Shown piece by piece: positions 4,051-52,700 of a stretch of 64,000 nt of DNA; the stretch's first letter is position 1, and the number at the start of each line of letters is the position of its first letter. A program made the position numbers and the translations under genes. Source of the DNA: an uncultured virus (IMG/VR IMGVR_UViG_3300030419_004292) (taxonomy: Duplodnaviria > Heunggongvirae > Uroviricota > Caudoviricetes); IMG/VR virus record IMGVR_UViG_3300030419_004292, one strand, 5' to 3'. The notes under the pieces were generated by a model that was not told the DNA's origin, did not search any database, and saw only the letters and a program-made list of their open reading frames with translations.

Positions 4051-4070
4051 TAAAGTAATATACACCAATT
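4051..4070 (-). promoter_or_regulatory. Candidate phage late-promoter motif GGTGTATATTACTTTA
   Basis: Intergenic; the same core recurs upstream of four other structural genes. Confidence 0.6.
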
Positions 4071-4093
4071 TTGTTATTAAGGTTATATTTTCG

Positions 4094-19700: not shown

Positions 19701-21829
19701 GATTCACCTGACCCACCTGTTTCAACGCCGCTTGTGCCACCAGCATCACCTGTTCCGGGTTCTGGCACTAAACCTCCTTCTCCAATAGTTTCGCCATCTC
19801 CGCTACCATCTCCCGTAAATTGCTCATCTCCACCGAAGCCTCCACCGCTAGGTTCAGGAACTTCGTCTCCCTCAGATGGGATGTCCTCGTCAGACTGAGC
19901 TTCTTCCGTCACGATCCCTGTTTCGTTTTTATCTATACGAGCATAGGGTGCTCCTACCAATATGGTTACAGGGTTATCTGGTCCAAATGGAGCGCCCTCA
20001 ATTTTTGGAGAGAACGCGACAGAATGTCCAAAGTGCCCATCTGTTCCTCGAACATATTCACTACTTGCAGAACCATTGGGGGTTCCCATGTTGTACGTAA
20101 TCTGAGAATCTTCTGATGTGCCGTACAAGTGCTCTGGAGCTATTCTCGCATTTGGTACTACACCCTCATACCCAGCGGTATATTGAACCTGATTAAATGG
20201 TGAGGGGGCTATCATACGAATTCCCCTACCCGTATAATCTAAATGAGGATTTGGATGGCCTAAAGCGCTATAATATCCAGCACCCCCAGCAGACTCATCA
20301 GCCCTATCAAAATGATATATGTAGACCCTGCCAGAAGTAGATGTGTCTCCACTAAGCTGATTTAACTTGTCAACCCCATATGAAACTGGACCTCCAAATT
20401 CCCAAATTGCCGAAGTCTCGGAAAACGAACCAAGTCTAGGCTCATTGCCATTCGTGTCTACCCCGCCAAGATACCAGCCACCAAAATCAGTGAAGCCATT
20501 ATCTACCCTTTTACCTCTTGGTTCACCGATCAATACCCATTTATCTTTGAGGTCAACAGACCAACCAAATCTCGCGTCTGAATACAAGGGAATGTCTGCA
20601 TCTTCTCCGGGGTCAAAAGATTTTATATTGGCTTCGCTCCAACCACCCGGAAACGGGGCTTCAATAATTCCAGCCTGAAGCCAAGAGTCTCCACCCGAAC
20701 CTTTCCAACTACCTCCGAATTTGAAAGCTCCATTTCCACCGACCGGGTTTGTTAGTTCTCTATCGTGGTATAGTGATGCAGAAGTAGAAGAAATGTATTT
20801 CAGGAAGTAATCACCATTAGCAGCAGTATTACCGCCCACCCCTTCAATTTTAATTCTGGCACCATCCAATTTATTGGAACTGGCAGAGTGTCTTTTATCG
20901 CCCAAGCTTCCCCAGCCATCGGTCGTGACAACTATCGGGCTAGCATTTGTGGCGTTAGTAATTAAACCTCTGGGTTTTTTGAAAGTGTAAACAGCCCCAC
21001 CCTGAGCATAAAAATTTGCGGCGTATCCAACAACCGAATTTGAAATAGTTGTTTCTTGATATAGAACTTCGGTTCCCGCCTCGTCTTCTGTAAAACCTAT
21101 ACTCCAAGTGCAACCCCCGGTCCCTATCCAGCAATCTTCACTACTGTCACAAGGGTACGCTTTTATGGTAGCACTTCCCTCTTCACCAACCCCTCCTCCG
21201 TCATAGCTTGTGAGATACCAAGTAAAAGCCGACCAAGATGATGGAGAAGATGCTCCGGGCGCAGTGAGGTCTCCAGCAAAAGTGAATTCCTGACCTAGAA
21301 ATGTAAATTTGTCGTATACTCCATCCGCCCAAAGACTTTGTAAATCGCCGGTAACAGTTATGGTTATTACTCCGAAGCAATCTTCCGTATGGGGCGGCAT
21401 GCCCTCAATATGGGTTTGCTCAGCGACGACAGGCAAAGAAACGGTCTGTGAGGGACTTACAAAAGAGAATTTTTTCCAAGCATAGGGAGCGCCTACAACC
21501 ATGTAGTCTCCCTCTGTAGCAATAGAGAAACCTATACCTTCTCCATAACGAGTGTCTAGGGCGACTGGGCGAATATAACTACTAGAGGAGTCTAGGGGCA
21601 AAACATCACCGGCTCCATCGGCGTGCGTAGCGTCTCTACTGTGTCCCGTTTGTATTTCGTTGGGTTCCCAGTATGTTGCGCCACGAAGATTATATCCAAC
21701 CTGACTTTCTACAGTGCCATCAGGGCTTACGGGCGTACCTATACCACTCATCACCTCCTTGGTGGACTGACCGCCGGAAGCAGGTGGAGCACCTATATAT
21801 AAGCCTATGTTATTGGTGTCTGACGCCAT
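13715..21829 (-). CDS. Giant FG-GAP (integrin-like beta-propeller) virion protein with FCCH-like, DNRLRE/CBM-like and cupredoxin-like domains
   Basis: Many FG-x-S-V-A ... VGAP ... GAVYVF repeats in two blocks; 'ITNATNASPIVVTT' FCCH-like; 'LRFNNMGIPRGSQIHNAYIEM'; 'GHTFY...YVHCGLHSGMG'. Confidence 0.75.
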   Translation of the reverse strand: MASDTNNIGLYIGAPPASGGQSTKEVMSGIGTPVSPDGTVESQVGYNLRGATYWEPNEIQTGHSRDATHADGAGDVLPLDSSSSYIRPVALDTRYGEGIGFSIATEGDYMVVGAPYAWKKFSFVSPSQTVSLPVVAEQTHIEGMPPHTEDCFGVITITVTGDLQSLWADGVYDKFTFLGQEFTFAGDLTAPGASSPSSWSAFTWYLTSYDGGGVGEEGSATIKAYPCDSSEDCWIGTGGCTWSIGFTEDEAGTEVLYQETTISNSVVGYAANFYAQGGAVYTFKKPRGLITNATNASPIVVTTDGWGSLGDKRHSASSNKLDGARIKIEGVGGNTAANGDYFLKYISSTSASLYHDRELTNPVGGNGAFKFGGSWKGSGGDSWLQAGIIEAPFPGGWSEANIKSFDPGEDADIPLYSDARFGWSVDLKDKWVLIGEPRGKRVDNGFTDFGGWYLGGVDTNGNEPRLGSFSETSAIWEFGGPVSYGVDKLNQLSGDTSTSGRVYIYHFDRADESAGGAGYYSALGHPNPHLDYTGRGIRMIAPSPFNQVQYTAGYEGVVPNARIAPEHLYGTSEDSQITYNMGTPNGSASSEYVRGTDGHFGHSVAFSPKIEGAPFGPDNPVTILVGAPYARIDKNETGIVTEEAQSDEDIPSEGDEVPEPSGGGFGGDEQFTGDGSGDGETIGEGGLVPEPGTGDAGGTSGVETGGSGESTGGSSVTRTPPSRDVINRVGHTYAFIGAYPDSGNASYSVWRGLPNLYMGNETIGEVLYNQSDIKCSGAFTINNLIGVEKVSDNGEMVDVVPIEDSYLWQRLEHRIYNDNHPLHITDGRGAQDRFGWAVGIKGNTAIVGAPRHSLGVDIDHLGYRSYIKDAGAAYLFTRSSHSGYFDTIEPEGSGALFTKYVGVDENAVAISGANIRHHRDEYDNFGYSVAINENFFAVGAPRHAGAAMGRDFSKEEGGAVYIWEKQPGGNYVFDQKICHNDEKYGFYYGPHIGNTTDPTYVIGSGRDAYSHFGASLSLCGNNLLAGAPFAGGGLDYDYDASLYTTLNFREKLSTEYFKGGDGEGEVSGFESSWNENSLPDNNNLNILYRGGWAPGIPTGGTNYVGNGRAYLFQRQGNREDTRVNENINVAADLDDATINSSAESYDDSSDTIAAGGNLTSSLYSLLRFNNMGIPRGSQIHNAYIEMTAAADDDIATTITIYAFDEDDGEMPSGGEDDSPGESGDEYVNFTTKLNSKKTLNKVSWTLTRTMAGKKVQTAPIAGVIQEIVDRPGWSDNNSIVIILGPKESKDPSNGKKIFYSANYGFRYSDGNETGLDARPRINIDFTEPRDQWKQTNEFIAPIGRDGRTSDVEDYGRSVGLSKEDIIIGGPEYALDGLGSLGDNYNLFTTFGGSGSVSHRDFVGLGCRGYGDPGTPGGNFPHVFSMHTKGVYLLASGMDAHAKGHALDSGNITLTIPKAHAKFSHAMPLYVGPLRARGHTSLYTRGAVLSSGSMPLVMTFRATGNLDMFLKNFQYTGGMPLTVQAPLAASGTADLFTVGPLPSSGDITLHNKGHLCFNSPVGTYPEGYPSLFVSGDATQVTATGSLYTTGPIAATGGINITGPYNLPASGQTSLYTRGLSSDNTTLNLTLEKITGDIDDGIKLYTAGPASIVPPAQSDPDGTDLNPDDRSITLFTKYDPSYASSATSSHSIVKLTKQQTITGDSYREGGIWGSRVMDFLGDSDSDEYSEEAKAHKQHYLKKQNDTIDIHGKSMAVGSPGVKYEFNPIGFNDPPHENGSVKIYSWDGDTDTWSLAQTIQHPNNATEVAPNHSEFGASVAVDDTNGLLVIGEPASDTNDTGKAHIYRRSSGTWAYEATVDGATVLTDGSSPSVNDKKLGDRFGHYVAIDSSVVIVGAPGQDYGTDTTIKDSRINSGAVYVFEYDSGSSRWERTQKLVNPDRNIDYECLNENEYEQSYFGLICKIKDNTIVVGAPSQSLRVKNGDTSIGYVEGGGAVYIFDKSGTWSFTKAFYSRGQSSTNNGTVDSSITYTSADYNANFGASLDFYGHNIVVGAPKKQVSSKDRAGEAYILEKSGGTWSLKYTIIPTETFSDSSVVHSADDLFGYHVSILNEDTVLIGSPKHDYGVAPSTTADTAGTNTGAIYVFGIKGGNQIKKFVREEVVSNQFFGYNNVAFEQGNDAQLVSLTYGKNTSESANVIELYRYLSSMPLNIRGPLESNSNTTLFTDGVVGSSGLAPLFTEGMTPANEDTTLMLLGPSGINATGTLHTKGWSPYQTVFNLTMKASMTGPEQNTGTYSTLSLVTKGPIGASSAGWPYWNLKDHRYARKFNITVQSGFYTNDTNAFHIDDNYPPYYYNANPPEYEWGDPILERGRSYVFDLSDSSNSGHTFYISKINDGGGPDSNYAEEYLNGVSGSRSTQGGQLEFHVPDDAPEYLYVHCGLHSGMGWRIQVINKRASTPDGMSLYIDPAPLSSSDTMGLLVEGSIDQAWGTRSNTSMGLFAKVRDVYPESSGINLYTRSVGTTEVETSSYMNLWVQSTGIEGGANFADYMNLFLKPQTKVDVTSNMNLSLLTPAHPTEDITLYLHNTQTKKEANIFTPATGGMNLFLGTTSGTPFGVLPSSSMNLVMPIKGLSGGQQFASRSFDGTFPDAGLDLYIGNTDTSGSMPLFTRSVYYATGVIPLSIPASVGVHSGVSTFMIRGYNDSASGI

Positions 21830-21844: not shown

Positions 21845-24800
21845 TTATTTGCCACCAGTAACCCTATTAGGTCTCTTGCTTAGTTGATCATTAACAAGGT
21901 TCTTCACATGGTCACCTAGAGCCTCTGTAATAGCATCGGCAAAACCGGGAACATCAATTCCGCCCAATGTCAGCGGACCCTCAAAACTAATGTTGCAAGT
22001 CATTTCCAATCCATTCAAAGTGCCAGCAGCAGTGTTAAACATTGTGGCAGCGGAGCTAAGTCCCGCCACAAATGCATCAAGTCCAGATGCGCCAACAGCA
22101 CCAGCAAACGAACTAGTAAAGTTATCCAAAACGGGCTTCAATGAACTACCAATACCCTGCCCCATCATGTTCCCAATAGCGGGAGCCTGATTAACAAGGG
22201 CTTCAGCTATACCAGCACCATCTACATTAATTCCACCATTACCATTACTCTTAACAGGACCGTTAGTAGAACCATGCTGTAAATACTGTACCAGCCCGCC
22301 CTTATTATAACCCTGAATTCCGCCCCTATTTAAACTTTTCATAAATCCGGCGCCATATTTACTAACAGCACCCTTGGACATAATAAATTCACCGGGTGTT
22401 AACATGGCGGGAACAGTATCAGAACCCATAGAAGGAATAGATCCACCCATAGCTCGCCACACTGGATAGCGCCTTGGATCAACTCGGAGGGGCGGCTGCT
22501 GCTGCTGCTGTGCTGGGTAGTTTGCGAACATTTTTTTGATTGCCTGTTCTGGTGTCATTCCAGCGGGTGAGGAGGGGAATTGGGGTCTTGCGGGATCTAT
22601 AAAGCCTTCAGGAAGTTCCCCGCCGAAAGTTTGCTCGTATCCGCCGGGATTAACGATTCTATCCATAACTCCTCTACCAGCCTGCCTGACTGATTCCGGC
22701 ACCATGCCCCCGATAGCTCCTCCGATAGCCGCACCTGCTTGCGCTCTTCCGCCCCTAGTACTAACTAAATCTCTAACTTCACCCTTCATTTGCGCAGCTT
22801 GAAATCTTTGATTTACAGCCTGAAGTCTCGTCTCTTGTCTTGCTATCGCCTTGTCTATTCCAGCCGTGGCTTTACCGGCACTCTTTAGCTTATCCCTTCT
22901 AGCCCGCAACTTGGCAAGTGTCTGCCGAATTTTAGCAACGGTTTTACCGTGCTTTATACTAGCTCTTTGTGCCGCTTTATGTCTTCTGGTGGGTTTTCCC
23001 TTGCTGTCCGTGGCGCTAATTTCTCCAGTTATTCCAGCTTGCAATCTCATTGCAGCCCTAGAGACAGTGGTGTAATCTCTTAGGTATTCTGGGAGACCCT
23101 TTTGATATGCCGTCAATTCCCCCGGACCAAGAGGTCCGGTGCCCAACAAGGGAGGCGCCCCAAACGGGAAGGATGAAAGAATATCTTCCTTCTTTCCTAG
23201 TGCCTTTTGAGAAAACTGTATTTTTCCTGCGCTGGCAGACGCTATCATTCCTTCAGATAGAAGATTTTGCAATGATCTTGCACTACTCATAACAGCCGGG
23301 AAATATTTCTCAGTATCGCCACCACCGGCTATATCTCTGAAAGCACCTCTCCATTTTTTAGGAACTTTATTGAATGGAGTGTTAGATATTCTATCCTTAA
23401 TAATTTGACTTATTTTTCCGGGGCTATAGATGTTGGCTGTTCCGCCAGCCGCCGAAGCTCCAGCAGAAATTGCACCTCCCAAGTTTGCAGGGGCAGCCGC
23501 CGTTCCGGGTGGCGTGACTGCGGCGGCTCCTCCCGTCGCGGCTGCTTGCGCCGTCGTCGCCGTCTGTGGGCTTGATCCAGTCATAGGCCCACCACTCGGA
23601 GCAAACGGGTTAGCGACTTCATTCGGCGCGTCACCCTGCTGCGTCTCTGTCGGGTCTTCTTTCTTTTTGGCGCCTTCTCTAATCCAATTTGCGGTTGCAC
23701 TCAAAGAAGCTATGCTTAAAACATTCGATAGCCACTTGACTGGCTTACTCCCCACTATCCTCCCGAACAAAGTCTTTTGCTTTTCCTTCGCCCCTTTCTC
23801 CCCATCCTTACTCTTCTTGCTGGCCGCTTCTTCCTCTGACTTCCTTGCTGCGGCTTCTTCCTCTGCCTTTTTTGCTGCTTCTTCAGCTTCTTTGGCCTTT
23901 TTTCTCGCGGCGGCGGCGGCCTCGTCTGCGGCCTGCTTTTCTTTCGCGACTTCTGCATCTGCTCTCGCCTTGGCTTCGGCTTCCGCCTGTTTTCGTGCAG
24001 CAACAGCAGCTTCCTCAGCTTTTTGTCTCGCGGCGGCCTCTGCGGCGTCTGCCTCGGCTTTTTGTCTCGCGGCTTCTGAATCTGCTCTCGCCTTGGCTTC
24101 GGCTGCGGCATCTTTCACCACAGATTCATCAAGGAATTCGGTGGCGTCTTTATTTCTTGTTGCTGTGTCCGCTGCTACTTCGTCACTTTTTGCATTCGTC
24201 TCTTTTGCTTTGTTTAATTTGTTTCTTATGTTGTTTTCTGCTGCGGCATTCTTATTAGCCTCTTGTTCTATTGCTTTCTGTTCATTTAATTTTTTAGTTT
24301 CTGCGGCTCTCTGTCCCCCGCGAATTCTTCTCGCCTTAGTTAAGAATAGCTTTTGAGCAGCCGCTTCTCCCTGACCCCACTGACTTGGCGGCTTACCGTT
24401 AGCACCCTCTACCGCGCTCCAATTTTTCACGCCCTTCGGAGGTGTAGGTGTGCCAATTTGACTTTCAATATCAGCCTTCAATGCTCTCCAATTCGTCTCA
24501 GTGCCCTTTTTCCCACCTTTGATAGCACTCCCGCCCTTGTTATTCGACAATCCACCTTTTGGAATCTTCGTGGTGGACATTAAATCTGTAGGAGCTTCCG
24601 CCTCAGTCTTTTTTGCCGCCTTGGTGACATCGTCTGCTGCCTTTTTAACCTGCGCCCTTGCCTTGGAATCTCGTAGTTTTAGGGCCGCAGCGTCTGTAAC
24701 AGTTGGGCCACCAACCTGTTTCAAATCTGCTGGTGCAGCTTCAGAGAGAATCACTTTCTCAGGCTGTGATTGTTCTATGAGTTTTTGTGTTTGCGCGTCT

Positions 24801-27800
24801 GCTTTAGCTTTAGGTTCGACATGAGTAAGCTTTAGCATTTCCCCCGCTTTTACTGGCTCGACTGGCGCTGGCTTTGCTGGCGTTGCTGCTGGCTTTGGTT
24901 GTGGTGCTGGTGCTGCGGCAGGAGCGGCTGTTCCACCCCCTCTTCCTAGTCCACTCGTCTTCTTAAAAGGATCGAAAGATGGATCTGTCGAGGAGCCTTT
25001 CTTATAAGGCTCTCTACCTGAAGCAAGACTCCTGTTGTATCTGTCTACTAATGGTCCTCCTTTCTTTAGAGTCTCAGCCTCAGTCAATCGTCTCATGACT
25101 AGCGGATCGCCGCCCCTGTCGGGATGGTGTTTTTTCTGGAGCGCTTTGAACCTTTTTTTCAGTGTAGCCACAGCATCAGCACTAAGCGGCTTACCGAACT
25201 TAGGCCCACCCGGCCTATATTGAGGAAGACCCGCAATATCATACAGAGTATTTCTTGGGTCTAGAATGAACTCTGCTTCTGCGATCCTGACTGGATCGCC
25301 CTCGTACCTAGCTCTCGCCTCCCCTAGCTCCGCTTCAAATTGCTTTACCTGCGCCTCAGTCGGATCAACACCCTCAAACCGCCCCCGTCTCCGAGTACCC
25401 TTTGTAGTACCCTTTGCTTTTTTTGACTTTGCCTTTTGTGCATTCATTCCTTCTATCGTTTTATCAACAGCCCTCTGCCTATCCTTGGCATCTTTAATCC
25501 TGTCAATTCTCTCCATCCTCGCTTTCAGCTTCTCGGCCTTACCCTTATTAGCTTTTAGCCATTCCGTTCGACTGAGGCCATCGGGATTAAGCCTCTTATT
25601 TCGAAGCACTTCTTTAAACAACTGCCTTGCTTCTTTTGAATATTTTTTCCCCGTTCCACTCGCAGCAGTGTCGGTCGTCTTCTTATTTTTACCCTTTTCA
25701 GCCCTGTTTTGAGCACCTTTCTTTGTCTTGTTTATATTATTAACGGTTTCCGCAGCAGCCTTGTTAGCAGCCGCTGGACTGTCGGCACTGGCAACCTTAG
25801 CTCTCCCAGACTTGAATCCCTTTCCTAGACCAACACCAGCAAAACCTCCACCCATCAAGCCGCCCATCATGATAGCATCCATTAAACCCGAATCCCAAGG
25901 ATGATCAGGATCAACTCCAAATTCTCGCATTACTTGATTCTGAGCAAGTCTGTCTGCCCCACCAGCCGCAGCGCCAATAGCAGCACCTTTTGCAACAGCC
26001 AATGTCCCTTCGCCCGCGATCCGTGCATAGACCTTGCCTGCCCCCCCACCAAACTTTCCAGCCCCTTTCAATTTCGCCAGTTTACTCAGTGCTCTAACAC
26101 TCGTTCCACCGCCAATTTTACTCGCCGCTCCAAAAGTAATCGCATCCAATAACGCACTAACCGCAGTAGCACTAACCGCACCTTTAATTTGATCGCCGCT
26201 ATTTCGCCATTCCCGCATAGCAAGTTCAAATACTTTTTGTTCGTCTTCGGCGTTGTACGGTTTTCCAGACTCTTTTATCACCGCCAAATAGTCCTCTTTT
26301 GCCTTATCCGCTATCTTCTGTCGCCCCTCCTCCATAAATCCTACCAGCCCCAAACTCCCGCCAACTATCGCACCCGCGCCCATAGTAGCCCCAGCCCCAG
26401 CCGCAGCCGCACTAGCTCCAGTAGCTGCTGTTAGACCAGCGGTTCCTCCTATAGCAGAAGCTCCAGCACCCGCTGTGCCAATCGCTAAAGCAACAGTCCC
26501 CGCCATCCTTCCGACTCCTTCAGCACCCTCAAATCCTTTGGAAGCTTTTCCAACAAGTTTATCTTCGGCTCTTTGAATGGCGCCCACGGTATCTGTACCC
26601 GCCGCCAAGTCAATTACCGAACCTCCCACTTTCGCCATAGTTCCAACAATACCCTTGGCTGTACCGGCAGCAAAAGCTCTAACCGTTTCCATCGCCCCAC
26701 GGTCCCCGGTAAATTCACCTCTCTTAAATGTCTGATAACCTTCCGCAAAACTTTGCGGTCCTTTACCAAGCTGATTTGCACCAAGTACACCACTCTTGCC
26801 TGTGGAAACTCCCTTTACCTTACCCGGCGATGCTTGAGGATTTTTCGCTTTTGCATCTAGGTATTGTCTTAACGCTTTATCATCGGTTTTTAACCCTACA
26901 TTAAGTGTTGCCGTCCCACCCTTGGACGTTATACCTTTAAGATCTGCATATTTCCTATCCCATGCATCCCTTTCATCACTACTGCTGCTCCACCAACCCG
27001 GTCTTGGAGGAACCTTAATCTGTTTTTCACTTAATTTCTTTCCTGCCTTACTCAATCCTCCTTCTTCAGTAAATAGGCCATACAAACCCATATTAGTATA
27101 ATCTTTTACTGATAATGCATTTATTTCCGCAGCAGTAAATTTTCTAGTACTCGCAAGATGCTCTCTGGCGGCAATCAATCGCTGATCTCTAATATCTCCA
27201 TGATCCCCAGCAATTATTTTTTCTAATGCTACTTGGTCTGGGTTTTGATTCCTGTAGGCCGCCTGAAAATCCTTTTTGGAAAATCTTTGGGGTGCCCCCG
27301 ACCACGCCTTTCCACCATTCTTCAAATATTGCACCACCCCACCGCCACTGTAATATCCAGTGTTAATAGCGTTTAGCGCCCCAACACCAATCTTATCGAC
27401 GGCGGATTTGCGTACAACAAACTCACCGGGCGTAAGCATAGCGGGCACTGTGTCAGTGCCTCTTGGGGCAAAGACTGAGCCACCGGCAGCAAAGGGAGCA
27501 ACTTTTCCACCGCTCAAACCAAGTGCTGCGGCATTGGAGTATGCCCTAAACTTATCTAGCCATGACGGTTTTTTGTCCATGGCCTTTCTTATATTCTTTG
27601 CGGCTTCCTTGCCAGATGCCTCTGGTGATTGCCCAGTACTTAATGCACCCTTAACCGCATCCCCGACTCCTTGCCCAACAGCCTCTGATATTTCACCCTT
27701 ACCTATTATCCCTTCTATTGCACCTGACGCAAGCGAGCCAGCAGACGCACCAGCACTAGCCGCGCCCCTCTGCATCATCCCCTCTACGATATCTTTTGCC

Positions 27801-30800
27801 GCATCTCCAAGAGCGTCTATAATCGCTCCCTTATTATCTTTAAGTTCTCCTACTAGAGACTCTATTGCTTTTGTAAGTCGATCTGTAGAATCTGTTAAAG
27901 GTTTAAATAGACCACCCAGTCCCGGTACGCCACCCCCGCCCGGAACTTTTCCCTTCTGAGCATACTTGGCGTTCATGGCTCTAAGAAGAGGCGCATTCTC
28001 CTTAGTAGCGCCCGCATTCATAATCGCCTCGCCCTCTTTATCCATCCATACTAGATCATCATCCTTACCCTTTGGCCCATTAATGATTCCCTTTACAGCA
28101 TATGGAACATGTCCCTTGGCAATTGTAGGTACAGCAACCCCAGCAGCACCGCCGCCTCCACCGCCACCAGTCGCAGCCTGAAGCTGCACTAACATGTTGT
28201 TTAGTCTGTTAATAAAGTCCGTATGCATCTGCTGAATGGCGCTAAGAACCTGAGTCTCTTGCTGTGCTAACACTGCAATCCACTGTTTTCTAGCGTTGTC
28301 CTCCGCAGCAAACGCCCTTTGTAAGTCCCCAATCAATCTGTCTTCTTTTGATGTGCTTTCGAAGATCTGCTTGATTTGTCTTTGCGTAACTCCTCCACGA
28401 CCCTGAGCCTTGAGCATCTTGTCAAGCACCCTGACTTGGAATTGCTTGGCAATTTTATCTCCGGTCATACCGGGAATAAGCTCCACGTCCGCGAACTGTT
28501 CAAGTATCTTGCCCACGGCGGGACGCATTTCGTCTGAAATAGCATCAATATCACCAGCATTAATCGCTTGAGTCAAAGCAGCAAAAGATTTATTAATTGA
28601 TGCGCGGCCTTCATTTGTGGCAAAAGTCCAGTCTTTAAGGAGGGTCGATCTAACCTCCCGCTCTTTCTTTGCTAAATCAAGCTCTTCCTTTATATCGGAT
28701 GCTCTACCTTGCGCGGACGTGACCAAGTCCTTCAGGGCCATTGTTAATCTTTTGGACTTTTCATTTAGCTTCTGTAAGTTTTTTGCTTGAAGGGCATACT
28801 CGTTAGCTAAATCAGCGCCCATCCTGCCGGTCGCACTGAACCCCTGAAGTGCCTTGTCGGCCCTTCTAATCTCATCCTTAGTTTTTCTAAGCTCGTTGCC
28901 TATGCCTACAGCATTACCAGCTAAACCGGCATTTTGAGGACCGAGAATAGCTCTCTGTCTGTCTCTTCTGAAATTCTCTCTAGCTCCCAGACTAAGCCTG
29001 CCTCCCCCAACTTCAGACAGCGTCTTGGCATTCTTTAACTGGGCACTGACTAGATCAGATTCCGCCTTTACCCTCTCCATCGTAATCTTTGTTAACTGCT
29101 TAAAGCCATCTCCCAGCCTCTTTATATTCTGGTTGAATTCCTTTAAGCCCTTACTCAACAACCCGTTTACTTCATTAAACTCTTTAGCTAACTTATCAAC
29201 CTCTGCTTGTACTTCCTGTGCTGTTAGAGGTTTACCCTTCAAATCTTGAATCTTTTTTGTAATAGCCGTGAGAAACTTGTCTCTAAGCTCTGGAGGCAAT
29301 GCCGCCAAAATCGCTGGATCAAGAGTGTCAATTGCGTTTTTCACATCGTCCAGTCCTTGCCCAGCACTTAAACCAGCCGAAGCTAGCGTGGTCACAACTT
29401 CGGGCATTCTCCGAAACACCGTTGCCACATCAATAGCTTCTTTAGCTAGCTTTTGACCGGCCTGTCCAAATATCGCCCCGGCCTGATCTGCAACCCGTTT
29501 AAATCTTCCCAAATCCCCTACTTTACTAACGTCTTTTATTACGCCAGAAAAATCTACTCTCTCTGCCCCTACGCCCCCTTGACCAGCTATAACTTTTAGA
29601 TCCCTCATTCCAAGCTTGGCGTCGTTTGCTGCTGCGCCTAAAGCATTCAGCCCAATATTTAATACGTCCACCCTTTGTCTGAGAGCGGCGAATGCCGCTG
29701 CTTGAGCCGCCGCCGCCGCTGCCAGCCTAGCCTTTTGTTCAACTTCATTCTTAGCAGACGCTTCTATTTGATCTATAGCCTCCTTAGCATCATCTGTACT
29801 CATCCCCATCGCTTCGAATATTTTTCTGAACAGGGCCATGCTCTTTTCGAATTCAGCAGAATTCTTAATTTGAGCAAAGTCTTTTCCGGCGTCAACTTGA
29901 CTCTTTATGTATGAAGATAGACCCTTTCTTAAATTCTGCTCTTGACCACCCAAAGTGGCTTTTACCTTATCGGCCTGTTCTTGATACGCCGCTACCAATT
30001 CTTTATTACCTCCAGCGGCTTTGACCGCATTCGTCCTATCTTGAAAGACTTTGGCATCAGAGGCAATTTGATTGATAGCACCAAATGTGTCTACAAAAGC
30101 GTCTCTCCCCTGTAGACCCGCTCTTGTGATAGCCTCCATCGCCATCTTAAATCTCTTGCCAGACGCTGTTACTGACGCAGCAAATCCACTAACGTCACCT
30201 TCTTGACTTCTTGTGGTAAAATTAGTGGCCCCACCGGTGACTGAGTTAATCCATTCAAGAACATCATTAAAATATGTAGCAGCGGTGGCAGCAGCGGCTA
30301 GAGCAACCGCTAATATTTTAAGTGGTCCCGGCAATTTCGAGGAAGCAACCGCCAATCCCGCAAGAGTCGAGCTAACACCGGCCACAGCCGTAGTTTGCTC
30401 TAACTGAGCGGACCTTGTGCCTTGGGCGATGGCTTCCTGCACATTACCCGCCTTGATAGCCGCCTCGGTCGCCTCGTTTGCAGCATGAGCAAATTCTTGT
30501 AGTACGGTAATCCCCGCTGCCGCTGCAACAGAGAAGCCAAGTAATGCAAGTCGGGCCGCCTTAGTCTCACCCTTATCTGGTTCTTCAGGTGCTTCTTCTC
30601 CTTTTTCCGCTGCCTCTTCTGCCGCCTTTCTAGCATCATCAAGTGCTTTAGCCGCCTCATCCGAAGCCCTCTCTATATCCCGCAGAGCTTTACCGACACT
30701 AATGAATAGAAATGTGAGTACCCCCACCTTACTACCAAGGGTCGTAAATTCCTTGATTTGCTTTCCAAGCACTCCTTGAAAGTTTATCATTTCCGCTACA

Positions 30801-33800
30801 ACTGGAGCTAGCAAACTACCTATAATTGCGATGTCACCAAAATCAACGCTACCGCCACCCTGAAATTTTTGAACACGACCTACAGCACCACCGGCAGCAA
30901 ATTTACCAACAGAGTTCATACGCTCCAGATTACCACGCCCGATTCTACTGGCAGAATCCTTATTGATAACGAACTCGCCCGGAGTAAGAAGTGCGGGAAC
31001 CGTGTCAGTTCCTACGCCACCACCGCTGGCAAACTTCTTAACCTGAAGGTTCGGAAATTCTCGCTGAAGAGCCGCAAGCATTTGCATGGAGGCTTCGTCA
31101 CCGGCTCTAGGAGCGCGCTTCGTACCTCTTAAAGCTTTTGCACTTCTCTTATCTAGAGGGTCTCCTCTGCCCACCTTTGATTTGGCAGCCCTGCGTCTTC
31201 TCTGCTTATCTAGTTGCTCATCGCTTGGAGATAGGTAAATACCAACCCCACCGGTTTTTCTAGCTAGGGCGATTTGATCGAGAACATTATCAATCTTATT
31301 CCCACCCAGTTCAAAAGTTAGCTGGCTTGCCGTACCGGCATCAGCAAAGTTCATTAGAGGCGCAGCACCCAACTTTTTAGACTGGAAGGTTTTACCCGAA
31401 CCAGAAGGCCCAGCAATAAAGTTAATCTTTTTGATGTTGGGATAAGCCCCACCTCTTATCTCTGCCGCGAACTTCTTAACAGCCTGCCACGAACCCAGTC
31501 CCATTGTATCTGAAGAAACTGAGAAATGCCCTCCCGCCGGGACTTCTCCACCATCTATAAATCCAATAGCCCCACCTCTACTCTTCGACGCCCTAGCAGC
31601 CATTCTTTTGGCTGTAGCATCGGCTTTAGCATCTTCTTTTTTCTTGGCCTCTAATGGTTTTGCCAACCTCTCGTCATTGATTCCATTTTTATATTCAAGG
31701 TCAATAACTTTATTAATCGCGGACATCTTACTGCTAGCAGACGAAAGACTTTCAGTATTAAAACCCTTTTTAACTATCTCTTTTGCGTTGTCCGCAGTTA
31801 ATGAAAGTTTAGCATCAGAATACTTCGGTGCTTTGTGGGCTGGTTTTGTAACAAGTTTATTTAATTTTTTCCTATCCCAATTGGTAAAATCAAAAGCTCT
31901 CTCAGCCCCTTCCGTATCTTTGGCAATATCTATGGGATCGTTGCCCAGAGCCTGCGTCACTAAATCTTCGAAAACTATTCCAGCCGCCACAGTGATACTG
32001 TCTTTTTTAGGTTTTTTTCCTTCCGTTAATTCTTTTACGGCATCTTTCCCAGCGAATGCGAAGTTATTTGCAAGTTTGTCTACATCCTTCGCATTTATTC
32101 GCTTGAGAGCGGATTTTGCCCCATCCCTCAAAATCCCTCTTGCCGCTGATATTGACCTTTTCCTTCCGCCGCCCCCTCTTGCGGTCATTACTTTCGTCTT
32201 ACTACGTTCTCCTTGGACGAGGTTTTTGTCATACTCTGCTCCAATTTCTCTAGCAAAACTATTATACAACTCAGCGGGTTCACCCTTGTTGACAAGATCG
32301 GCATCAACCCGAGCACTAAGCTGAATACGCTCAGCAATACTTTTCGCAATTCCATCAGTACCTCTTCCAACCTTACCTTTACGTATGTTAATACCAAATT
32401 TTTTCATGAAAGCTTGTTCAATAAGTGGGTCAAATGACTCAATTGGCTCTTTCTTAGCTAGAGCAGTCCTATTAACCCAAGTCCCCTCGTAAGTCCCCGG
32501 CCCCACACCTTTCCCGACACCCGCAGACAACATTCCCAATATTTGGCCTATTTCTAGCCTTGCTGCAATTCCGCCACCATTCAGTCTCTGTATAAAGCCC
32601 CCCATGTTCTGGAACTGAAGACCTGACTCTTTTCCTTCTTTAGCAATAGTTTTTAGCTGTTTTCCAACGAGGCTGCTTTTGGCAGTATCACTGAAACTAT
32701 TCTTGACATCTGCGTACTTAGCGTTTTTAAAAAGATTGTATTGTTTCTGACCAATAAGATCAGCAAATCCGGGGTCGGCTGTTTCTCCTTCTTTAAATTC
32801 CCATACCTGCTTTCCCGACCCTTTTTTGAATACCCCCGTAAAACCCCTGATGGAAGCTTCCGCCAAACTTCCCGTAACAGCTTCTCTTTGCTCCTCTAGA
32901 ACATTTGCAATCTCTTTTTGATAGTCTGATCTCTGTCTAACTGCTCGTGGACCTCTGGCAGCTATCTTTTCCAAGCTTTGCTGAAGAGGTTTTGCTACGT
33001 CGGCTTCAAAATCTTCTCTGAATGTATCGCTGGGGTTGTATAATCTGGTAGCCGCTGTAACTTTCGTGACTTTTATTCCTTTCTTCTTTTTTGTATCAAT
33101 AAGCCTGTCCAACCTCTCTTTTCCAGTACCGGCATCTCTTCTTGCTGTACCTATACCAACTTCCAATTTTTGGGAGCCACCATCTTTTCCCCCGTTCATT
33201 ACCAGAGCACCAGTCCTTTCCCTGCCGCCCGTAATCCTAATTTCCCCCTCCTTCATAGTCTGCCTTTTTGGACCACCACCATTACTGAAACGCTGTATTG
33301 ACCCGCCACGACCACGCTCATTCATCTGCTGAAGATTGCCAGCCCCAAGGCTTTTTACGGAACTCTTCTTGATAACAAATTCGCCCGGAGTTAACATCGC
33401 AGGAACGGTATCCCTGTTTCCTTGACCCGGAACTACGCCCCCACTGGCAAACCTTTTAATTGGTCCACCACGCCCTCTGGTTACTGGAGTTGCAAGACCT
33501 CTAGCAAAAGAGGGAATCGCCATACCTATTCTAAGTGTAGAAAGTGTTACAAGCATGGGAAGCAGTGGAGTAAGAGCATCCGCCACCTTAATGAAAGCAG
33601 AGGCTAGCTTAAGCCCCAAATCGACCATGGTGCGGAATGATTCGCTGTCAGCCACCTTACGCACCAGTGCCGAAAATTCTTCTTTAACTTTAGATATCTG
33701 TACCTGCAAAGCTTTCTGAGCTTTTTGAGCGTCGGCTGTAAGAGAGTTAGCTCCCCTTTGGGCAACGGTGTAAGCTCTAGTGGCCACATCAAATTGCTGG

Positions 33801-34843
33801 ATTAAGGGGATGACTTTACTGATCTGACGGAAACCACCAAGCTGTTCGACGATCTGGTTGAATCTGAAGTCCTTGGGGTCCAAGGTTTTAAGTGCCTGAC
33901 TCAACCTTCTAATAGCTTCCATCGGACCAACAAATTTACCCCTAACATCCTGCAACTGGATACCCAGTTTTTTTAGCTGGTCGATAGTTTCTACGCGCTG
34001 TATTCTGGTAAAAATAGTACGGAAACCAGTAGCGATTGTTTCAGCACTTTCTCGCGTGGTCGATCTAACAGAAGTAAACAGTCCAATAAGTTCATTTAAA
34101 TTGCCACCGGCAGACTTAAACACTCCACCAGTACGACGTACTGCGGTAATTAAATCGGCAGATTCTACGGCGAATTTCTTTGATACAGCATTGATAGCGC
34201 CTAACTGTTTTTCTAAGTTGGCAATATCTTGCGCAGTAGTTCTTCCCTGAGAACCAAACTGTCTCAGGATGGCAATGGCACCTTCTGTGGTCGCCGTTAA
34301 ATTATCAAAAGTGGGGGCGAGGTCAGTCTTGGCCAAGATATTCATAGCCTTGGCAGTTTGCCTAGCGGTCAAACCTGCCTGAGCTAGTGTTCTGGATACC
34401 GTCAGCAACGAAGAGGATGCAACACCCATAGTGGTTGCTGTGTTCGTAACTGCTGAAGTAAAGTTTTTTAGGTCTTTGGTGGTCTTCCCTGTGACCTGAC
34501 TGATTTTAACTAATTCTCTTTCAAAGGCTATTGCTTCTTTAGTAGCGTTCGAAACTGCTCGTGCCAGACCTACAATTGCTGCGGTAGCAATAGTGAAACC
34601 GGCAAATCTCTTAGCGGCCAGACCAGCATTTCTACCGAAAGCTTCCATGCTATTGCCAGCTTCATCGGCACTTCTTCTTGTTCTCTCAAGAGCGGTTCTT
34701 GTTTTCTCTAGATCTCTAGTATCGGCTTCAACCCTGACCGTAACTACTACGTCCTTAAGCTCACGCCTAATAGTTTTAGCAACATCTCTAATATTGACAG
34801 CCTGAATGGTAAGCTCTGCTGTCAAATTAAATCTACTGGACAT
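21845..34843 (-). CDS. Tail tape-measure protein (TP901-like core) with multiple inserted domains
   Basis: N-terminal TMP core ('FERELVKISQVTG', 'INAVSKKFAVESADL', 'TRESAETIATGFRTIFTRI'); Ala/Gly-rich helical sequence; DTVPAMLTPGEF repeats; follows the tube and chaperone genes. Confidence 0.9.
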   Translation of the reverse strand: MSSRFNLTAELTIQAVNIRDVAKTIRRELKDVVVTVRVEADTRDLEKTRTALERTRRSADEAGNSMEAFGRNAGLAAKRFAGFTIATAAIVGLARAVSNATKEAIAFERELVKISQVTGKTTKDLKNFTSAVTNTATTMGVASSSLLTVSRTLAQAGLTARQTAKAMNILAKTDLAPTFDNLTATTEGAIAILRQFGSQGRTTAQDIANLEKQLGAINAVSKKFAVESADLITAVRRTGGVFKSAGGNLNELIGLFTSVRSTTRESAETIATGFRTIFTRIQRVETIDQLKKLGIQLQDVRGKFVGPMEAIRRLSQALKTLDPKDFRFNQIVEQLGGFRQISKVIPLIQQFDVATRAYTVAQRGANSLTADAQKAQKALQVQISKVKEEFSALVRKVADSESFRTMVDLGLKLASAFIKVADALTPLLPMLVTLSTLRIGMAIPSFARGLATPVTRGRGGPIKRFASGGVVPGQGNRDTVPAMLTPGEFVIKKSSVKSLGAGNLQQMNERGRGGSIQRFSNGGGPKRQTMKEGEIRITGGRERTGALVMNGGKDGGSQKLEVGIGTARRDAGTGKERLDRLIDTKKKKGIKVTKVTAATRLYNPSDTFREDFEADVAKPLQQSLEKIAARGPRAVRQRSDYQKEIANVLEEQREAVTGSLAEASIRGFTGVFKKGSGKQVWEFKEGETADPGFADLIGQKQYNLFKNAKYADVKNSFSDTAKSSLVGKQLKTIAKEGKESGLQFQNMGGFIQRLNGGGIAARLEIGQILGMLSAGVGKGVGPGTYEGTWVNRTALAKKEPIESFDPLIEQAFMKKFGINIRKGKVGRGTDGIAKSIAERIQLSARVDADLVNKGEPAELYNSFAREIGAEYDKNLVQGERSKTKVMTARGGGGRKRSISAARGILRDGAKSALKRINAKDVDKLANNFAFAGKDAVKELTEGKKPKKDSITVAAGIVFEDLVTQALGNDPIDIAKDTEGAERAFDFTNWDRKKLNKLVTKPAHKAPKYSDAKLSLTADNAKEIVKKGFNTESLSSASSKMSAINKVIDLEYKNGINDERLAKPLEAKKKEDAKADATAKRMAARASKSRGGAIGFIDGGEVPAGGHFSVSSDTMGLGSWQAVKKFAAEIRGGAYPNIKKINFIAGPSGSGKTFQSKKLGAAPLMNFADAGTASQLTFELGGNKIDNVLDQIALARKTGGVGIYLSPSDEQLDKQRRRRAAKSKVGRGDPLDKRSAKALRGTKRAPRAGDEASMQMLAALQREFPNLQVKKFASGGGVGTDTVPALLTPGEFVINKDSASRIGRGNLERMNSVGKFAAGGAVGRVQKFQGGGSVDFGDIAIIGSLLAPVVAEMINFQGVLGKQIKEFTTLGSKVGVLTFLFISVGKALRDIERASDEAAKALDDARKAAEEAAEKGEEAPEEPDKGETKAARLALLGFSVAAAAGITVLQEFAHAANEATEAAIKAGNVQEAIAQGTRSAQLEQTTAVAGVSSTLAGLAVASSKLPGPLKILAVALAAAATAATYFNDVLEWINSVTGGATNFTTRSQEGDVSGFAASVTASGKRFKMAMEAITRAGLQGRDAFVDTFGAINQIASDAKVFQDRTNAVKAAGGNKELVAAYQEQADKVKATLGGQEQNLRKGLSSYIKSQVDAGKDFAQIKNSAEFEKSMALFRKIFEAMGMSTDDAKEAIDQIEASAKNEVEQKARLAAAAAAQAAAFAALRQRVDVLNIGLNALGAAANDAKLGMRDLKVIAGQGGVGAERVDFSGVIKDVSKVGDLGRFKRVADQAGAIFGQAGQKLAKEAIDVATVFRRMPEVVTTLASAGLSAGQGLDDVKNAIDTLDPAILAALPPELRDKFLTAITKKIQDLKGKPLTAQEVQAEVDKLAKEFNEVNGLLSKGLKEFNQNIKRLGDGFKQLTKITMERVKAESDLVSAQLKNAKTLSEVGGGRLSLGARENFRRDRQRAILGPQNAGLAGNAVGIGNELRKTKDEIRRADKALQGFSATGRMGADLANEYALQAKNLQKLNEKSKRLTMALKDLVTSAQGRASDIKEELDLAKKEREVRSTLLKDWTFATNEGRASINKSFAALTQAINAGDIDAISDEMRPAVGKILEQFADVELIPGMTGDKIAKQFQVRVLDKMLKAQGRGGVTQRQIKQIFESTSKEDRLIGDLQRAFAAEDNARKQWIAVLAQQETQVLSAIQQMHTDFINRLNNMLVQLQAATGGGGGGGAAGVAVPTIAKGHVPYAVKGIINGPKGKDDDLVWMDKEGEAIMNAGATKENAPLLRAMNAKYAQKGKVPGGGGVPGLGGLFKPLTDSTDRLTKAIESLVGELKDNKGAIIDALGDAAKDIVEGMMQRGAASAGASAGSLASGAIEGIIGKGEISEAVGQGVGDAVKGALSTGQSPEASGKEAAKNIRKAMDKKPSWLDKFRAYSNAAALGLSGGKVAPFAAGGSVFAPRGTDTVPAMLTPGEFVVRKSAVDKIGVGALNAINTGYYSGGGVVQYLKNGGKAWSGAPQRFSKKDFQAAYRNQNPDQVALEKIIAGDHGDIRDQRLIAAREHLASTRKFTAAEINALSVKDYTNMGLYGLFTEEGGLSKAGKKLSEKQIKVPPRPGWWSSSSDERDAWDRKYADLKGITSKGGTATLNVGLKTDDKALRQYLDAKAKNPQASPGKVKGVSTGKSGVLGANQLGKGPQSFAEGYQTFKRGEFTGDRGAMETVRAFAAGTAKGIVGTMAKVGGSVIDLAAGTDTVGAIQRAEDKLVGKASKGFEGAEGVGRMAGTVALAIGTAGAGASAIGGTAGLTAATGASAAAAGAGATMGAGAIVGGSLGLVGFMEEGRQKIADKAKEDYLAVIKESGKPYNAEDEQKVFELAMREWRNSGDQIKGAVSATAVSALLDAITFGAASKIGGGTSVRALSKLAKLKGAGKFGGGAGKVYARIAGEGTLAVAKGAAIGAAAGGADRLAQNQVMREFGVDPDHPWDSGLMDAIMMGGLMGGGFAGVGLGKGFKSGRAKVASADSPAAANKAAAETVNNINKTKKGAQNRAEKGKNKKTTDTAASGTGKKYSKEARQLFKEVLRNKRLNPDGLSRTEWLKANKGKAEKLKARMERIDRIKDAKDRQRAVDKTIEGMNAQKAKSKKAKGTTKGTRRRGRFEGVDPTEAQVKQFEAELGEARARYEGDPVRIAEAEFILDPRNTLYDIAGLPQYRPGGPKFGKPLSADAVATLKKRFKALQKKHHPDRGGDPLVMRRLTEAETLKKGGPLVDRYNRSLASGREPYKKGSSTDPSFDPFKKTSGLGRGGGTAAPAAAPAPQPKPAATPAKPAPVEPVKAGEMLKLTHVEPKAKADAQTQKLIEQSQPEKVILSEAAPADLKQVGGPTVTDAAALKLRDSKARAQVKKAADDVTKAAKKTEAEAPTDLMSTTKIPKGGLSNNKGGSAIKGGKKGTETNWRALKADIESQIGTPTPPKGVKNWSAVEGANGKPPSQWGQGEAAAQKLFLTKARRIRGGQRAAETKKLNEQKAIEQEANKNAAAENNIRNKLNKAKETNAKSDEVAADTATRNKDATEFLDESVVKDAAAEAKARADSEAARQKAEADAAEAAARQKAEEAAVAARKQAEAEAKARADAEVAKEKQAADEAAAAARKKAKEAEEAAKKAEEEAAARKSEEEAASKKSKDGEKGAKEKQKTLFGRIVGSKPVKWLSNVLSIASLSATANWIREGAKKKEDPTETQQGDAPNEVANPFAPSGGPMTGSSPQTATTAQAAATGGAAAVTPPGTAAAPANLGGAISAGASAAGGTANIYSPGKISQIIKDRISNTPFNKVPKKWRGAFRDIAGGGDTEKYFPAVMSSARSLQNLLSEGMIASASAGKIQFSQKALGKKEDILSSFPFGAPPLLGTGPLGPGELTAYQKGLPEYLRDYTTVSRAAMRLQAGITGEISATDSKGKPTRRHKAAQRASIKHGKTVAKIRQTLAKLRARRDKLKSAGKATAGIDKAIARQETRLQAVNQRFQAAQMKGEVRDLVSTRGGRAQAGAAIGGAIGGMVPESVRQAGRGVMDRIVNPGGYEQTFGGELPEGFIDPARPQFPSSPAGMTPEQAIKKMFANYPAQQQQQPPLRVDPRRYPVWRAMGGSIPSMGSDTVPAMLTPGEFIMSKGAVSKYGAGFMKSLNRGGIQGYNKGGLVQYLQHGSTNGPVKSNGNGGINVDGAGIAEALVNQAPAIGNMMGQGIGSSLKPVLDNFTSSFAGAVGASGLDAFVAGLSSAATMFNTAAGTLNGLEMTCNISFEGPLTLGGIDVPGFADAITEALGDHVKNLVNDQLSKRPNRVTGGK

Positions 34844-35836: not shown

Positions 35837-36209
35837 TTTCGTCCTCCTCATTTTCCACATTAATAACAGGTAGTGTTACATGATATCTTTTCCAACTGAT
35901 ATCGTACTGAGAAACCTCGGTTTCTAGATTCCTAATCTGAGAATTTCCTCGGTCTAAAATTTCTGCTCTCGCTTCATCAAACAAATTCTTCATGTGTTCT
36001 TGTTCTGGGGTCAACTCTTCAGAGTTACCATGTCCCCACAGAAACCCAAAAAACTTCTCTACCGTACTTAGAGAACCAATCATTGTAGTCTGTATTTTTT
36101 TCTTAGCTATCTTAGACAACCTACTTGCTGAAGCTTCCTTGTACTTCTCTTCTTTTTTCTGTTTAAAATCCATAGAAGCTTTTATTAATTGATTATAATC
36201 CTGATCCAT
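35829..36209 (-). CDS. Hypothetical protein (tail assembly region)
   Basis: GGAGG RBS; 126 aa; helical. Confidence 0.55.
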   Translation of the reverse strand: MDQDYNQLIKASMDFKQKKEEKYKEASASRLSKIAKKKIQTTMIGSLSTVEKFFGFLWGHGNSEELTPEQEHMKNLFDEARAEILDRGNSQIRNLETEVSQYDISWKRYHVTLPVINVENEEDENV

Positions 36210-52630: not shown

Positions 52631-52700
52631 CACATCTCCCAGTATATTGCGAGTATATATATATTGCCTGCATCAATTCCATTGCAATAGAAATGATTCC

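Follow-up and report, generated by a model that had tools for sequence, protein, structure and literature searches.

A 4,332-residue tape measure protein of an uncultured tailed phage with recurring joints and candidate exchangeable cassettes

The window analysed here, a 64,000-nucleotide (nt) stretch of the uncultured virus record IMGVR_UViG_3300030419_004292 (IMG/VR), carries on its minus strand a giant tape measure gene whose product combines a conserved backbone with short recurring joints and variable blocks between them. The open reading frame (ORF; 21845..34843, minus strand) encodes 4,332 amino acids (aa) plus a stop codon, starts with ATG and contains zero internal stops. An AGAGG motif resembling a ribosome-binding site lies 7 nt 5' of the ATG, and 15 nt separate the stop from the start of the next gene. 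Pfam PhageMin_Tail (PF10145) matched aa 175-337 (E 2.6e-22; 80.1 bits, cut-off 33.2), and NCBIfam tape_meas_TP901 (TIGR01760; E 3.5e-26; 92.1 bits, cut-off 28.8) and several PHROG tape-measure families matched the ORF too. The gene is situated within a one-strand block of phage structural genes in an order that fits a tape measure, with the terminase large subunit, major head and cement proteins and a Gp80-like protein upstream, and a 2,704-aa FG-GAP protein and three more large, fibre-sized proteins downstream. Judged by homology and setting, the ORF encodes a genuine TP901-type tape measure protein of an uncultured tailed phage. A second assembly (G001:C177) contained these 12,999 bases at 100% identity, and a collinear relative of 4,300 aa (P0003) came from a third source; the ORF is therefore not an assembly accident. 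A first-pass annotation had described a 4,332-aa tape measure with a recurring module, and this description was borne out by a single intact ORF with a TP901 N-domain, four strong module copies and a degenerate fifth.

The module, here called the joint, was about 75 aa long with the core DTVPA[ML]LTPGEF. Besides the four near-identical copies (M1 to M4) and the degenerate one there were two stand-alone mini-joints (aa 748-762 and 1083-1097), which consist of the flanking GG...[FL]..GG part alone. The family consensus over 428 copies was GG-x-[IV]-x-x-[FY]-A-x-GG-x-V-P-x-G-[TR]-DTVPAMLTPGEFV-[IV]-[NR]-K-x-A-x-x-x-I-G-x-x-x-L-x-x-[MI]-N-x-G-x-[YF]-[AN]-x-GG-x-V-x-x-[YF]-x-x-GG. The short GG-x-I-x-x-F-x-x-GG linkers, also pointed out previously, held up against 1,000 composition-preserving shuffles, with six observed and a shuffle mean of 0.03. 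The motif [FY][ASNQK]xGG occurred eight times (0.9 in shuffles) and the joint core motif four times (0 in shuffles); the observed counts were reached in 0 of the 1,000 shuffles. The joints divide the protein into the following segments, all on the minus strand (percentages are identities to P0003):

33479..34843, minus: N-domain (aa 1-455), TP901-type, hydrophobic segments at aa 80-98 and 414-445; 97.6%
33239..33478, minus: joint M1 (aa 456-535), module profile E 3.4e-32, motif at aa 478; 88.8%
32603..33238, minus: bay 1 block A (aa 536-747), orphan, claimed nuclease-like; 58.5%
32558..32602, minus: stand-alone mini-joint (aa 748-762), GGFIQRLNGGG; 73%
31598..32557, minus: bay 1 block B (aa 763-1082), likewise an orphan claimed to be nuclease-like; P0003 has other sequence here, 26.9%
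31553..31597, minus: stand-alone mini-joint (aa 1083-1097), RGGAIGFIDGG...; 60%
31064..31552, minus: bay 1 cassette resembling P-loop nucleoside triphosphatases (NTPases; aa 1098-1260), Walker A at aa 1145-1152; 92.6%
30824..31063, minus: joint M2 (aa 1261-1340), profile E 5.2e-29, orthologue of the pre-core joint in relatives; 100%
28088..30823, minus: backbone core (aa 1341-2252), with four hydrophobic segments (aa 1332-1528) followed by an extended helix-prone region; 97.5-97.9%
27914..28087, minus: degenerate fifth joint (aa 2253-2310); 100%
27509..27913, minus: Gly/Ala-rich backbone stretch before M3 (aa 2311-2445), defined by composition; 99.3%
27284..27508, minus: joint M3 (aa 2446-2520), profile E 3.5e-31; 86.7%
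within 25694..27283, minus: bay 2 aromatic-rich block (aa 2521-2700), with zero other relatives aligning; 27.2%
within 25694..27283, minus: bay 2 Gly/Ala hydrophobic, glycine-zipper-like region (aa 2701-3050), with zero other relatives aligning; 30.9%
25274..25693, minus: bay 2 Lys-rich stretch (aa 3051-3190), 27-32% Lys+Arg per 60-aa window; 86.4%
24944..25273, minus: bay 2 probable J-domain (aa 3191-3300), HPD at aa 3240-3242; 89.1%
within 22469..24943, minus: bay 2 Pro/Ala-rich low-complexity stretch (aa 3301-3530), defined by composition; 33.5%
within 22469..24943, minus: bay 2 Ala/Glu/Lys helix-prone, coiled-coil-like stretch (aa 3531-3700); 67.6%
within 22469..24943, minus: bay 2 block without a family match (aa 3701-4125); 84.2%
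22244..22468, minus: joint M4 (aa 4126-4200), profile E 5.5e-28, orthologue of the relatives' last joint; 93.3%
21848..22243, minus: C-terminal tail (aa 4201-4332); 99.2%

The hydropathy peaks of the protein thus lay in the N-domain and at the start of the core (aa 80-98, 414-445 and 1332-1528). The combined Gly and Pro content, a crude proxy for the earlier-described alternation of helical and non-helical stretches, was 22-27% in the joints, 7.7% in the N-domain, ~10.5% in the core and 12-20% in the cargo blocks. The G+C content within the gene (22001-28000) was 0.49-0.50, compared with 0.37-0.46 elsewhere in the window, probably reflecting Gly/Ala codons.

At the DNA level the four joint copies of this gene differed at most third codon positions, with scattered invariant bases remaining. 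Because the copies differ at most synonymous sites, the joint is conserved by selection on the protein rather than by recent duplication or gene conversion. Scans of the protein's pieces matched the joint to no Pfam or NCBIfam family, and PHROG 35029 (unknown function) matched it four times. AlphaFold2, run on a 101-row alignment of the joint, gave a mean predicted local distance difference test (pLDDT) score of 64 and a single short helix after PGEFV. In this model the joint behaves as a short glycine-flanked linear element without a fold of its own, not as a domain. An identity with Pfam Tape_meas_lam_C (PF09718) was rejected: that family maps to residues 627-701 of lambda gpH, outside the joint. 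It was not found in Pfam scans of this protein, in which respect the two tape measures differ, and G001 gave a 12-bit match alone, on another contig.

A word-indexed search found 128 giant relatives (120 of the 128 listed), 2,394-6,352 aa in length. In the query and 119 listed relatives (n = 120), a hidden Markov model (HMM) of the joint counted two to eight joints per protein (median four, 496 in all), and joint number correlated with protein length (r = 0.55). The coverage of the query by BLAST alignments from 118 relatives, P0003 set aside, was sharply bimodal:

aa 1-520: 91-118 of 118 relatives align
joints: 59-118 of 118 align
aa 1760-2240: up to 42 of 118 align
aa 4200-4332: ~40-60 of 118 align over most of the stretch
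aa 601-1080, 1401-1640 and 2641-4080: 0 of 118 align

All N-terminal alignments, present in 117 relatives, ended before aa 580, and 85 of the 117 ended at aa 500-550, just past joint 1. A FastTree phylogeny (about 75 columns) of 142 joint copies drawn from 42 proteins grouped the copies by position (first, before the core, after the core, last), with 8 label changes compared with 70-86 in 200 shuffles, and did not group them by protein (134 changes; minimum possible 41). The four-joint plan is therefore likely to be ancestral. The interval that holds the core measured 1,268 ± 215 aa in 40 relatives and was uncorrelated with total length (r = 0.09), which ranged from 2,425 to 4,413 aa in this comparison. 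As far as the alignments tell, the backbone (N-domain, membrane/helical core, C-terminal tail and joints) is conserved and the two bays between the joints are lineage-specific.

Comparison of close pairs showed where the bays change. Between this protein (P0001) and P0003 the backbone was 97-100% identical, whereas three blocks were only 26.9%, 27.2% and 30.9% identical. Identity dropped directly past GGFIQRLNGGG, resumed at RGGA.GFIDGG and dropped again directly past VQYLKNGG; three of the four edges of the replaced blocks thus fell exactly at joints, and the fourth, near aa 3060, lay away from them. Thirteen pairs shared N-domain identities of 95% or more; of their 134 identity breakpoints, 50 were no farther than 30 aa from a joint (expectation 25%; binomial p = 0.001), and 37 of the 134, counted from the printed list, lay inside a joint, joints making up 5-19% of the chains. 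In 6 of the 13 pairs the swap that begins just past joint 1 had both edges within one residue of a joint. These alignments show that related phages exchange bay cassettes, preferentially at joints, in agreement with the exchangeability proposed in the first-pass annotation: the modules persist across relatives, and what lies between them differs. When the inter-joint segments were clustered by single linkage, 311 of 547 fell together via residual joint flanks, and the clustering was used for the P0001 rows alone.

Two cassettes of this protein resembled known folds. The Walker A motif GPSGSGKT occupies aa 1145-1152, its G, G and K being nearly invariant in 11 sequences, and an invariant Glu follows 27 residues past the Walker A Lys. 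A nine-sequence profile of the cassette matched FtsE (E 6.3e-7) and a designed phosphate-loop protein (E 1.8e-6) in the PDB, and the matches listed, the best 60 of 287 (E <= 10), were P-loop NTPases. In Pfam it matched AAA_16, AAA_22, AAA_33, Zeta_toxin and nSTAND, all below threshold. The homology thus supports a P-loop NTPase-like cassette at aa 1098-1260, as had been claimed. It was seen solely in other joint-bearing tape measures or short fragments. One relative (P0019) had three tandem P-loop cassettes at aa 1197-1812, and another (P0127) had two Walker A motifs.

The block at aa 3191-3300 contains an HPD motif (aa 3240-3242) that is kept in P0003 and has flanks resembling helices II and III of J-domains. 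It matched HscB in NCBIfam (E 0.013); all eight of its PDB matches were J-domain proteins, including Sis1, TIM14 and CbpA (E 0.035-1.1), and all 30 of its ESM Atlas matches were DnaJ clusters at 0.92 (recognition 3101). Among 121 proteins the block was present in this phage and P0003 alone. The DnaJ domain of the earlier description was thus retained as a probable J-domain, with concordant matches and the HPD motif, yet scores below the Pfam threshold. The block resembles class C membrane or translocon J-domain proteins (TIM14/Pam18) in its HPD motif and in the hydrophobic segments upstream in the same bay, and is unlike them in being sub-threshold in Pfam and embedded in a virion protein. E. 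coli DjlA is another membrane-anchored class C J-domain protein, and Rki of phage RB43, cited in PMC12619734, is reportedly a further comparison. Many activities are likewise joined in one injected giant protein in the polyvalent proteins of phages and plasmids.

The remaining bay content was less distinctive. Two nuclease-like domains had been claimed in bay 1, and their sole nuclease-like feature was a D-x-K type motif in blocks A and B. A PD-(D/E)xK identity found no support in Pfam (E <= 1), NCBIfam, PADLOC, PDB phmmer or the ESM Atlas (0.79), and this part of the description was dropped. A profile of block A against the PDB returned nothing, with a lipoate ligase as the best match (E 0.18). 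Among 1.84 billion representatives, block A had one 236-aa homologue (P0122) and a partly overlapping fragment (P0126), and a HMMER search with aa 536-1265 against the same set gave nine matches in all. The two blocks are not significant as mutual duplicates (E 0.69). The claimed hydrophobic Gly/Ala region was found again, with a 58-residue uncharged run (aa 2780-2837) and 18 matches to a small-xxx-small-xxx-small pattern. Glycine zippers in tape measures and in a type VI secretion system effector have been linked to membrane passage (PMC10240207). A large part of bay 2 consisted of Lys-rich, Pro/Ala-rich or Ala/Glu/Lys coiled-coil-like sequence. A 3,195-aa relative (P0030) contained an ADP-ribosyltransferase exoenzyme domain at aa 923-1135 (Pfam E 5.9e-10, above cut-off) between joints at 826 and 1157. 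P0035, whose N-domain is 98.9% identical to that of P0030, differed from it in the joint-bounded segments aa 510-827 and 873-1158. Two LysM domains lay between joints in locus L092. In 13 shorter joint-bearing ORFs, GH19 or SLT followed the single joint in three cases, and Pfam TMP families were matched by none.

The joint profile also matched well-studied phages. A search of solved-structure entries found two, the tape measure gp16 of mycobacteriophage Douge (aa 960-1028 and 1411-1473; E 4.3e-11) and lambda gpH (733-801; E 6.8e-5, or 2.7e-9 when gpH was scored alone). The HMM located one joint in TM4 gp17 (aa 699-770; E 3.4e-9). With the HMM no joint was found in the TP901-1 tape measure, in P23-45 gp96 (-0.5 bits) or in T5 pb2, for which the best score was -3.4 bits at another place than the R1127 cut. 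Lambda gpH is matured to gpH* and gpHC, with the exact cut site and catalyst described as unknown (PMC12617516). The ~14-kDa size of gpHC implies, as computed from the lambda sequence, a cut near residues 710-722, 10-25 residues before the joint. By profile comparison the joint is homologous to the gpH segment just after the glycine-rich stretch where gpH is cut, and the order of a G/A-rich stretch followed by a joint is common to gpH and this protein (aa 2311-2445, then M3).

Joints were widespread. IMG/VR contained at least 666 joint-bearing stretches (639 confirmed), bacterial genome assemblies 417 confirmed stretches, and 172 cultured-phage records carried the joint, mostly Gordonia and Mycobacterium phages and also T4-like cyanophages. 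Of 78 joint-bearing ORFs in the genome loci, 54 had one copy, 17 had two, six had three and one had four. The joint accompanied TMP_3-type and PhageMin_Tail-type N-domains alike, and each module-bearing tape-measure ORF that was read formed a single reading frame. Three genome loci (L097, L101, L103) had two or three separate shorter ORFs with one joint each. In Synechococcus phage S-SM2 (L083, 3005-5305) the joint occurred in a 766-aa membrane protein encoded between baseplate hub gp26 and a transglycosylase-domain protein; since S-SM2 is a T4-like cyanomyophage, the joint is not confined to non-contractile tails. Two-joint prophage tape measures were found in cultured bacteria, namely a Ralstonia condita strain (L141) and Methylolobus aquaticus FWC3 (L146), both with TMP_3 N-domains, and Amycolatopsis minnesotensis JCM 14545 (L121), with a PhageMin_Tail N-domain.

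Compared with this protein, lambda gpH is small (853 aa), with one joint, no inserted cassettes and an N-domain of another family; its residues ~690-817 are unresolved in the structure, and 818-849 bind gpI (PMC12617516). The TM4 tape measure gp17 (1,229 aa) likewise has one joint and differs in its TMP_3-family N-domain; the protein carries a peptidoglycan-hydrolase motif and is probably processed, according to Piuri and Hatfull (PMC1796659). Douge gp16 (1,699 aa) has two joints, which are not visible in a structure that resolves only residues 1658-1699 (PMC13033339). T5 pb2 is cut after R1127 during assembly, splitting the membrane-active part from a small muralytic domain that stays in the tail (PMC10038345). 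The A-E-G-G after that cut resembles the joint edge [FY]-A-x-G-G, a four-residue likeness only, in a protein unlike ours in lacking a match to the joint HMM. The 5,002-aa tape measure gp96 of the Thermus phage P23-45, fused to a virion RNA polymerase that is carried into the cell in active form (PMC10770324), is similar as a giant tape measure carrying an enzyme and dissimilar in having no joint, one N-terminal enzyme and no bays. The contractile injection system effectors Sle1 and Tme are related to tape measures, have exchangeable functional domains and are ejected from a tail-like tube (PMC13277306). They belong to bacterial nanomachines, not virions, and the available part of that source mentions no joint motif or cutting (PMC13277306).

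From these observations we hypothesize, with a probability of roughly 0.6, that the tape measure is an ancient backbone whose joints fence two bays of exchangeable cassettes that are probably carried into the host with the DNA. The order is N-domain, joint 1, bay 1, joint 2, membrane-active/helical core, degenerate joint, Gly/Ala stretch, joint 3, bay 2, joint 4 and C-terminal tail. Bay 1 holds the two orphan blocks and the P-loop NTPase-like cassette; bay 2 contains the glycine-zipper-like hydrophobic region and the probable J-domain, the rest being largely of low complexity. This architecture is shown by the data, as are the joint's homology to the gpH processing region, the positional orthology of the joints, cassette exchange and the P-loop and J-like signatures; processing and action in the host are proposals. 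Tape measures occupy the lumen of the tail, exit first and form or line a trans-envelope channel (PMC13033339, PMC12617516, PMC10770324). Since they reach the envelope ahead of the DNA, the cassettes may be carried into the host, and the bays would ride along to the envelope or cytoplasm. The joints would be processing or hinge sites, and the C-terminal tail would be the part that sits in the tail-tip hub, as in lambda, Douge and T5. Once inside, the cassettes could act in the host, for example as a membrane-anchored J-domain that recruits host DnaK at the entry pore. If the lambda rule applied, a cut before joint 3 would release a 1,890-aa gpHC-like distal piece, which would exit first with the glycine zipper and the J-domain. 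Bay 1, which adjoins the N-domain at the head-proximal end, would follow last, together with the end of the DNA. The payload idea of the first-pass annotation is partly supported: a P-loop cassette, a probable J-domain and, in a relative, an ADP-ribosyltransferase are present, and most of the variable sequence is not recognisably enzymatic.

Several results weigh against the hypothesis of fenced cassettes delivered to the host. Blocks A and B had no detectable nuclease or other relative among the families and PDB entries searched, and outside the N-domain, 20 IMG/VR tape measures and 12 giant relatives matched no family save weak glycine-zipper/C19orf12-like matches. The J-like block scored E 0.027 with Pfam DnaJ (PF00226; 15.0 bits, gathering cut-off 27.8, 22 residues matched), its 143 shared Atlas features out of 256 are below the usual number for the DnaJ family, and none of 145 candidate free-standing homologues scored. 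The breakpoint enrichment at joints is real but modest, ~1.5-fold, as many breakpoints represent drift in low-complexity stretches. A self-folding or self-cleaving joint domain was rejected on the AlphaFold2 result (pLDDT 64, one helix), and no protease candidate was found among the genes examined beside the tape measure gene. The suggestion of a polyprotein cut at its modules draws only on the homology of the module to the gpH region beside the gpH*/gpHC cut, and cutting has been observed neither in this phage nor in other multi-joint tape measures. P23-45 gp96, the nearest giant that has been studied, is full-size in virions and is stated to define an extraordinarily long tail (PMC10770324), which also weakens the earlier tail-length argument for payload; a tail of ~650 nm may be compatible with the data.

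In one alternative the full 4,332-aa chain measures a ~650-nm tail, and the variable blocks serve as rapidly evolving spacers whose motifs are incidental and which do nothing in the host. The P23-45 precedent suits it, as do the scarcity of recognisable domains in most of the variable sequence and the large low-complexity or helix-prone parts of bay 2. We consider it unlikely, however: the interval that holds the core stays the same length in chains of 2,425 to 4,413 aa, near-identical phages swap whole blocks for unrelated sequence that differs in length, conservation relative to P0003 is 89-93% in the P-loop and J-like blocks next to neighbours at 27-31%, and a relative carries an ADP-ribosyltransferase domain. 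That the joints are docking or hinge elements rather than cut sites is possible, though short of probable. Their binding partners would be the tail-assembly chaperone, the tube lumen or, within a trimer or hexamer, other joints, and an uncut protein would carry the cassettes as passengers, like P23-45 gp96, whose uncut state counts here against processing. A joint without its own fold, resembling a linear binding motif followed by one helix, fits this role, and so do the anciently fixed joint positions and a lambda cut that may fall upstream of the joint and not within it. Yet lambda gpH, the sole single-joint tape measure with experimental data, is cut no more than ~25 residues from its joint, and the TM4 tape measure has a joint and is reported to be probably processed (PMC1796659); P23-45 has no joint, so its intactness says little about joint-bearing proteins.

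Two further explanations concern the DNA itself. Exchange edges coincide with joints, as they would if the joints were recombination linkers, conserved nucleotide stretches that promote cassette shuffling. The third-codon divergence of the four copies, with only scattered invariant bases, makes this highly improbable, and the grouping of copies by position across 42 proteins implies that there was no gene conversion between them. Repeats can also mislead assemblers into stitching a chimeric ORF at repeated motifs, an origin that is barely conceivable here given the identical 12,999 bases in the other assembly, the collinear 4,300-aa relative, repeats that are not identical in DNA and a plan common to 120 proteins. 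Returning to the fenced-cassette hypothesis, a more far-reaching version, which we regard as rather doubtful at present, would make the joint a conserved recognition element of a widespread tape-measure maturation, with the lambda gpH cut, a question of 50 years' standing, as one instance and the multi-joint giants as true polyproteins with ordered delivery. Such proteins would be cut at assembly or ejection into several pieces that the tail delivers in fixed order. The distal piece (joint 3, glycine zipper, J-domain, joint 4 and C-terminal tail) would leave first and insert in the inner membrane, where the J-domain could recruit host DnaK as an import ratchet, like Pam18 or Sec63 at translocons. 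Last to enter, beside the leading DNA end, would be the proximal pieces from bay 1, among them the P-loop NTPase, and the tail would amount to a programmable, cassette-based effector injector.

Tape measures are known to determine how long the tail is. One-enzyme tape measures (TM4, T5, P23-45), the cutting of the lambda and T5 proteins and tape-measure-like contractile injection effectors are already in print. Full-text literature searches turned up no description of exchangeable bays bounded by repeated gpH-type joints. New here is the family-wide grammar, in which positionally orthologous joints homologous to the lambda cutting region fence two swap bays. If the joints are cutting or docking sites, the question of gpH cleavage gains a concrete, mutable target, the sharing of one backbone by tape measures of 2,400-6,350 residues is explained, and the tail lumen becomes a general delivery route for ready-made proteins (J-domain, NTPase, ADP-ribosyltransferase) ahead of or alongside the genome.

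The source is probably a lytic uncultured phage, with its contig binned with a bacterial genome. DNA comparison gave no close phage record, and the cargo part was present in one of 61 related genomes, G001 itself. As to tail type, a search of G001 (69% complete) for the sheath family Phage_sheath_1 (PF04984) found no match, and two neighbouring proteins compared with PDB sequences gave empty or weak results. Upstream of the tape measure gene, two overlapping ORFs of 126 and 311 aa (34925-36209, minus strand) were present, the second in the +1 frame. The 311-aa ORF has its own GGAGG and an ATG at 35836 (ATGTCTGA overlap), and a canonical -1 slippery site (G/GT type) was not seen in the pair. 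Other features of the window were:

60081-60575 and 61556-62686, minus: ERCC4-type nuclease gene directly 5' of the terminase, with a nucleotide-sugar epimerase homologue nearby (PHROG E 7.9e-70)
47138-52633, minus: 1,831-aa ORF between the major head and head-tail genes, with a weak PHROG match alone
44964-45404, minus: Gp80-like protein of the podophage GP4 fibre I family (E 1.3e-30)
41723-44083, minus: 786-aa protein with a ConA-like lectin domain
41401-41721, minus: BppU_N-like 106-aa protein
13715-21829, minus: the gene right after the tape measure gene, encoding the 2,704-aa FG-GAP repeat protein (four Pfam-matched stretches, E 1.4e-40)

Near 3.2 kb the coding strand changes (1-3173, plus; 3254 onward, minus), where five plus-strand ORFs without clear family matches face the end of the structural block. 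Beyond the FG-GAP gene, ORFs of 476, 1,129 and 1,449 aa, without a family match and of unusual size, presumably encode distal-tail or fibre proteins. The Gp80-like, BppU_N-like and ConA-like matches together mix adhesion-device features of podophages and siphophages.

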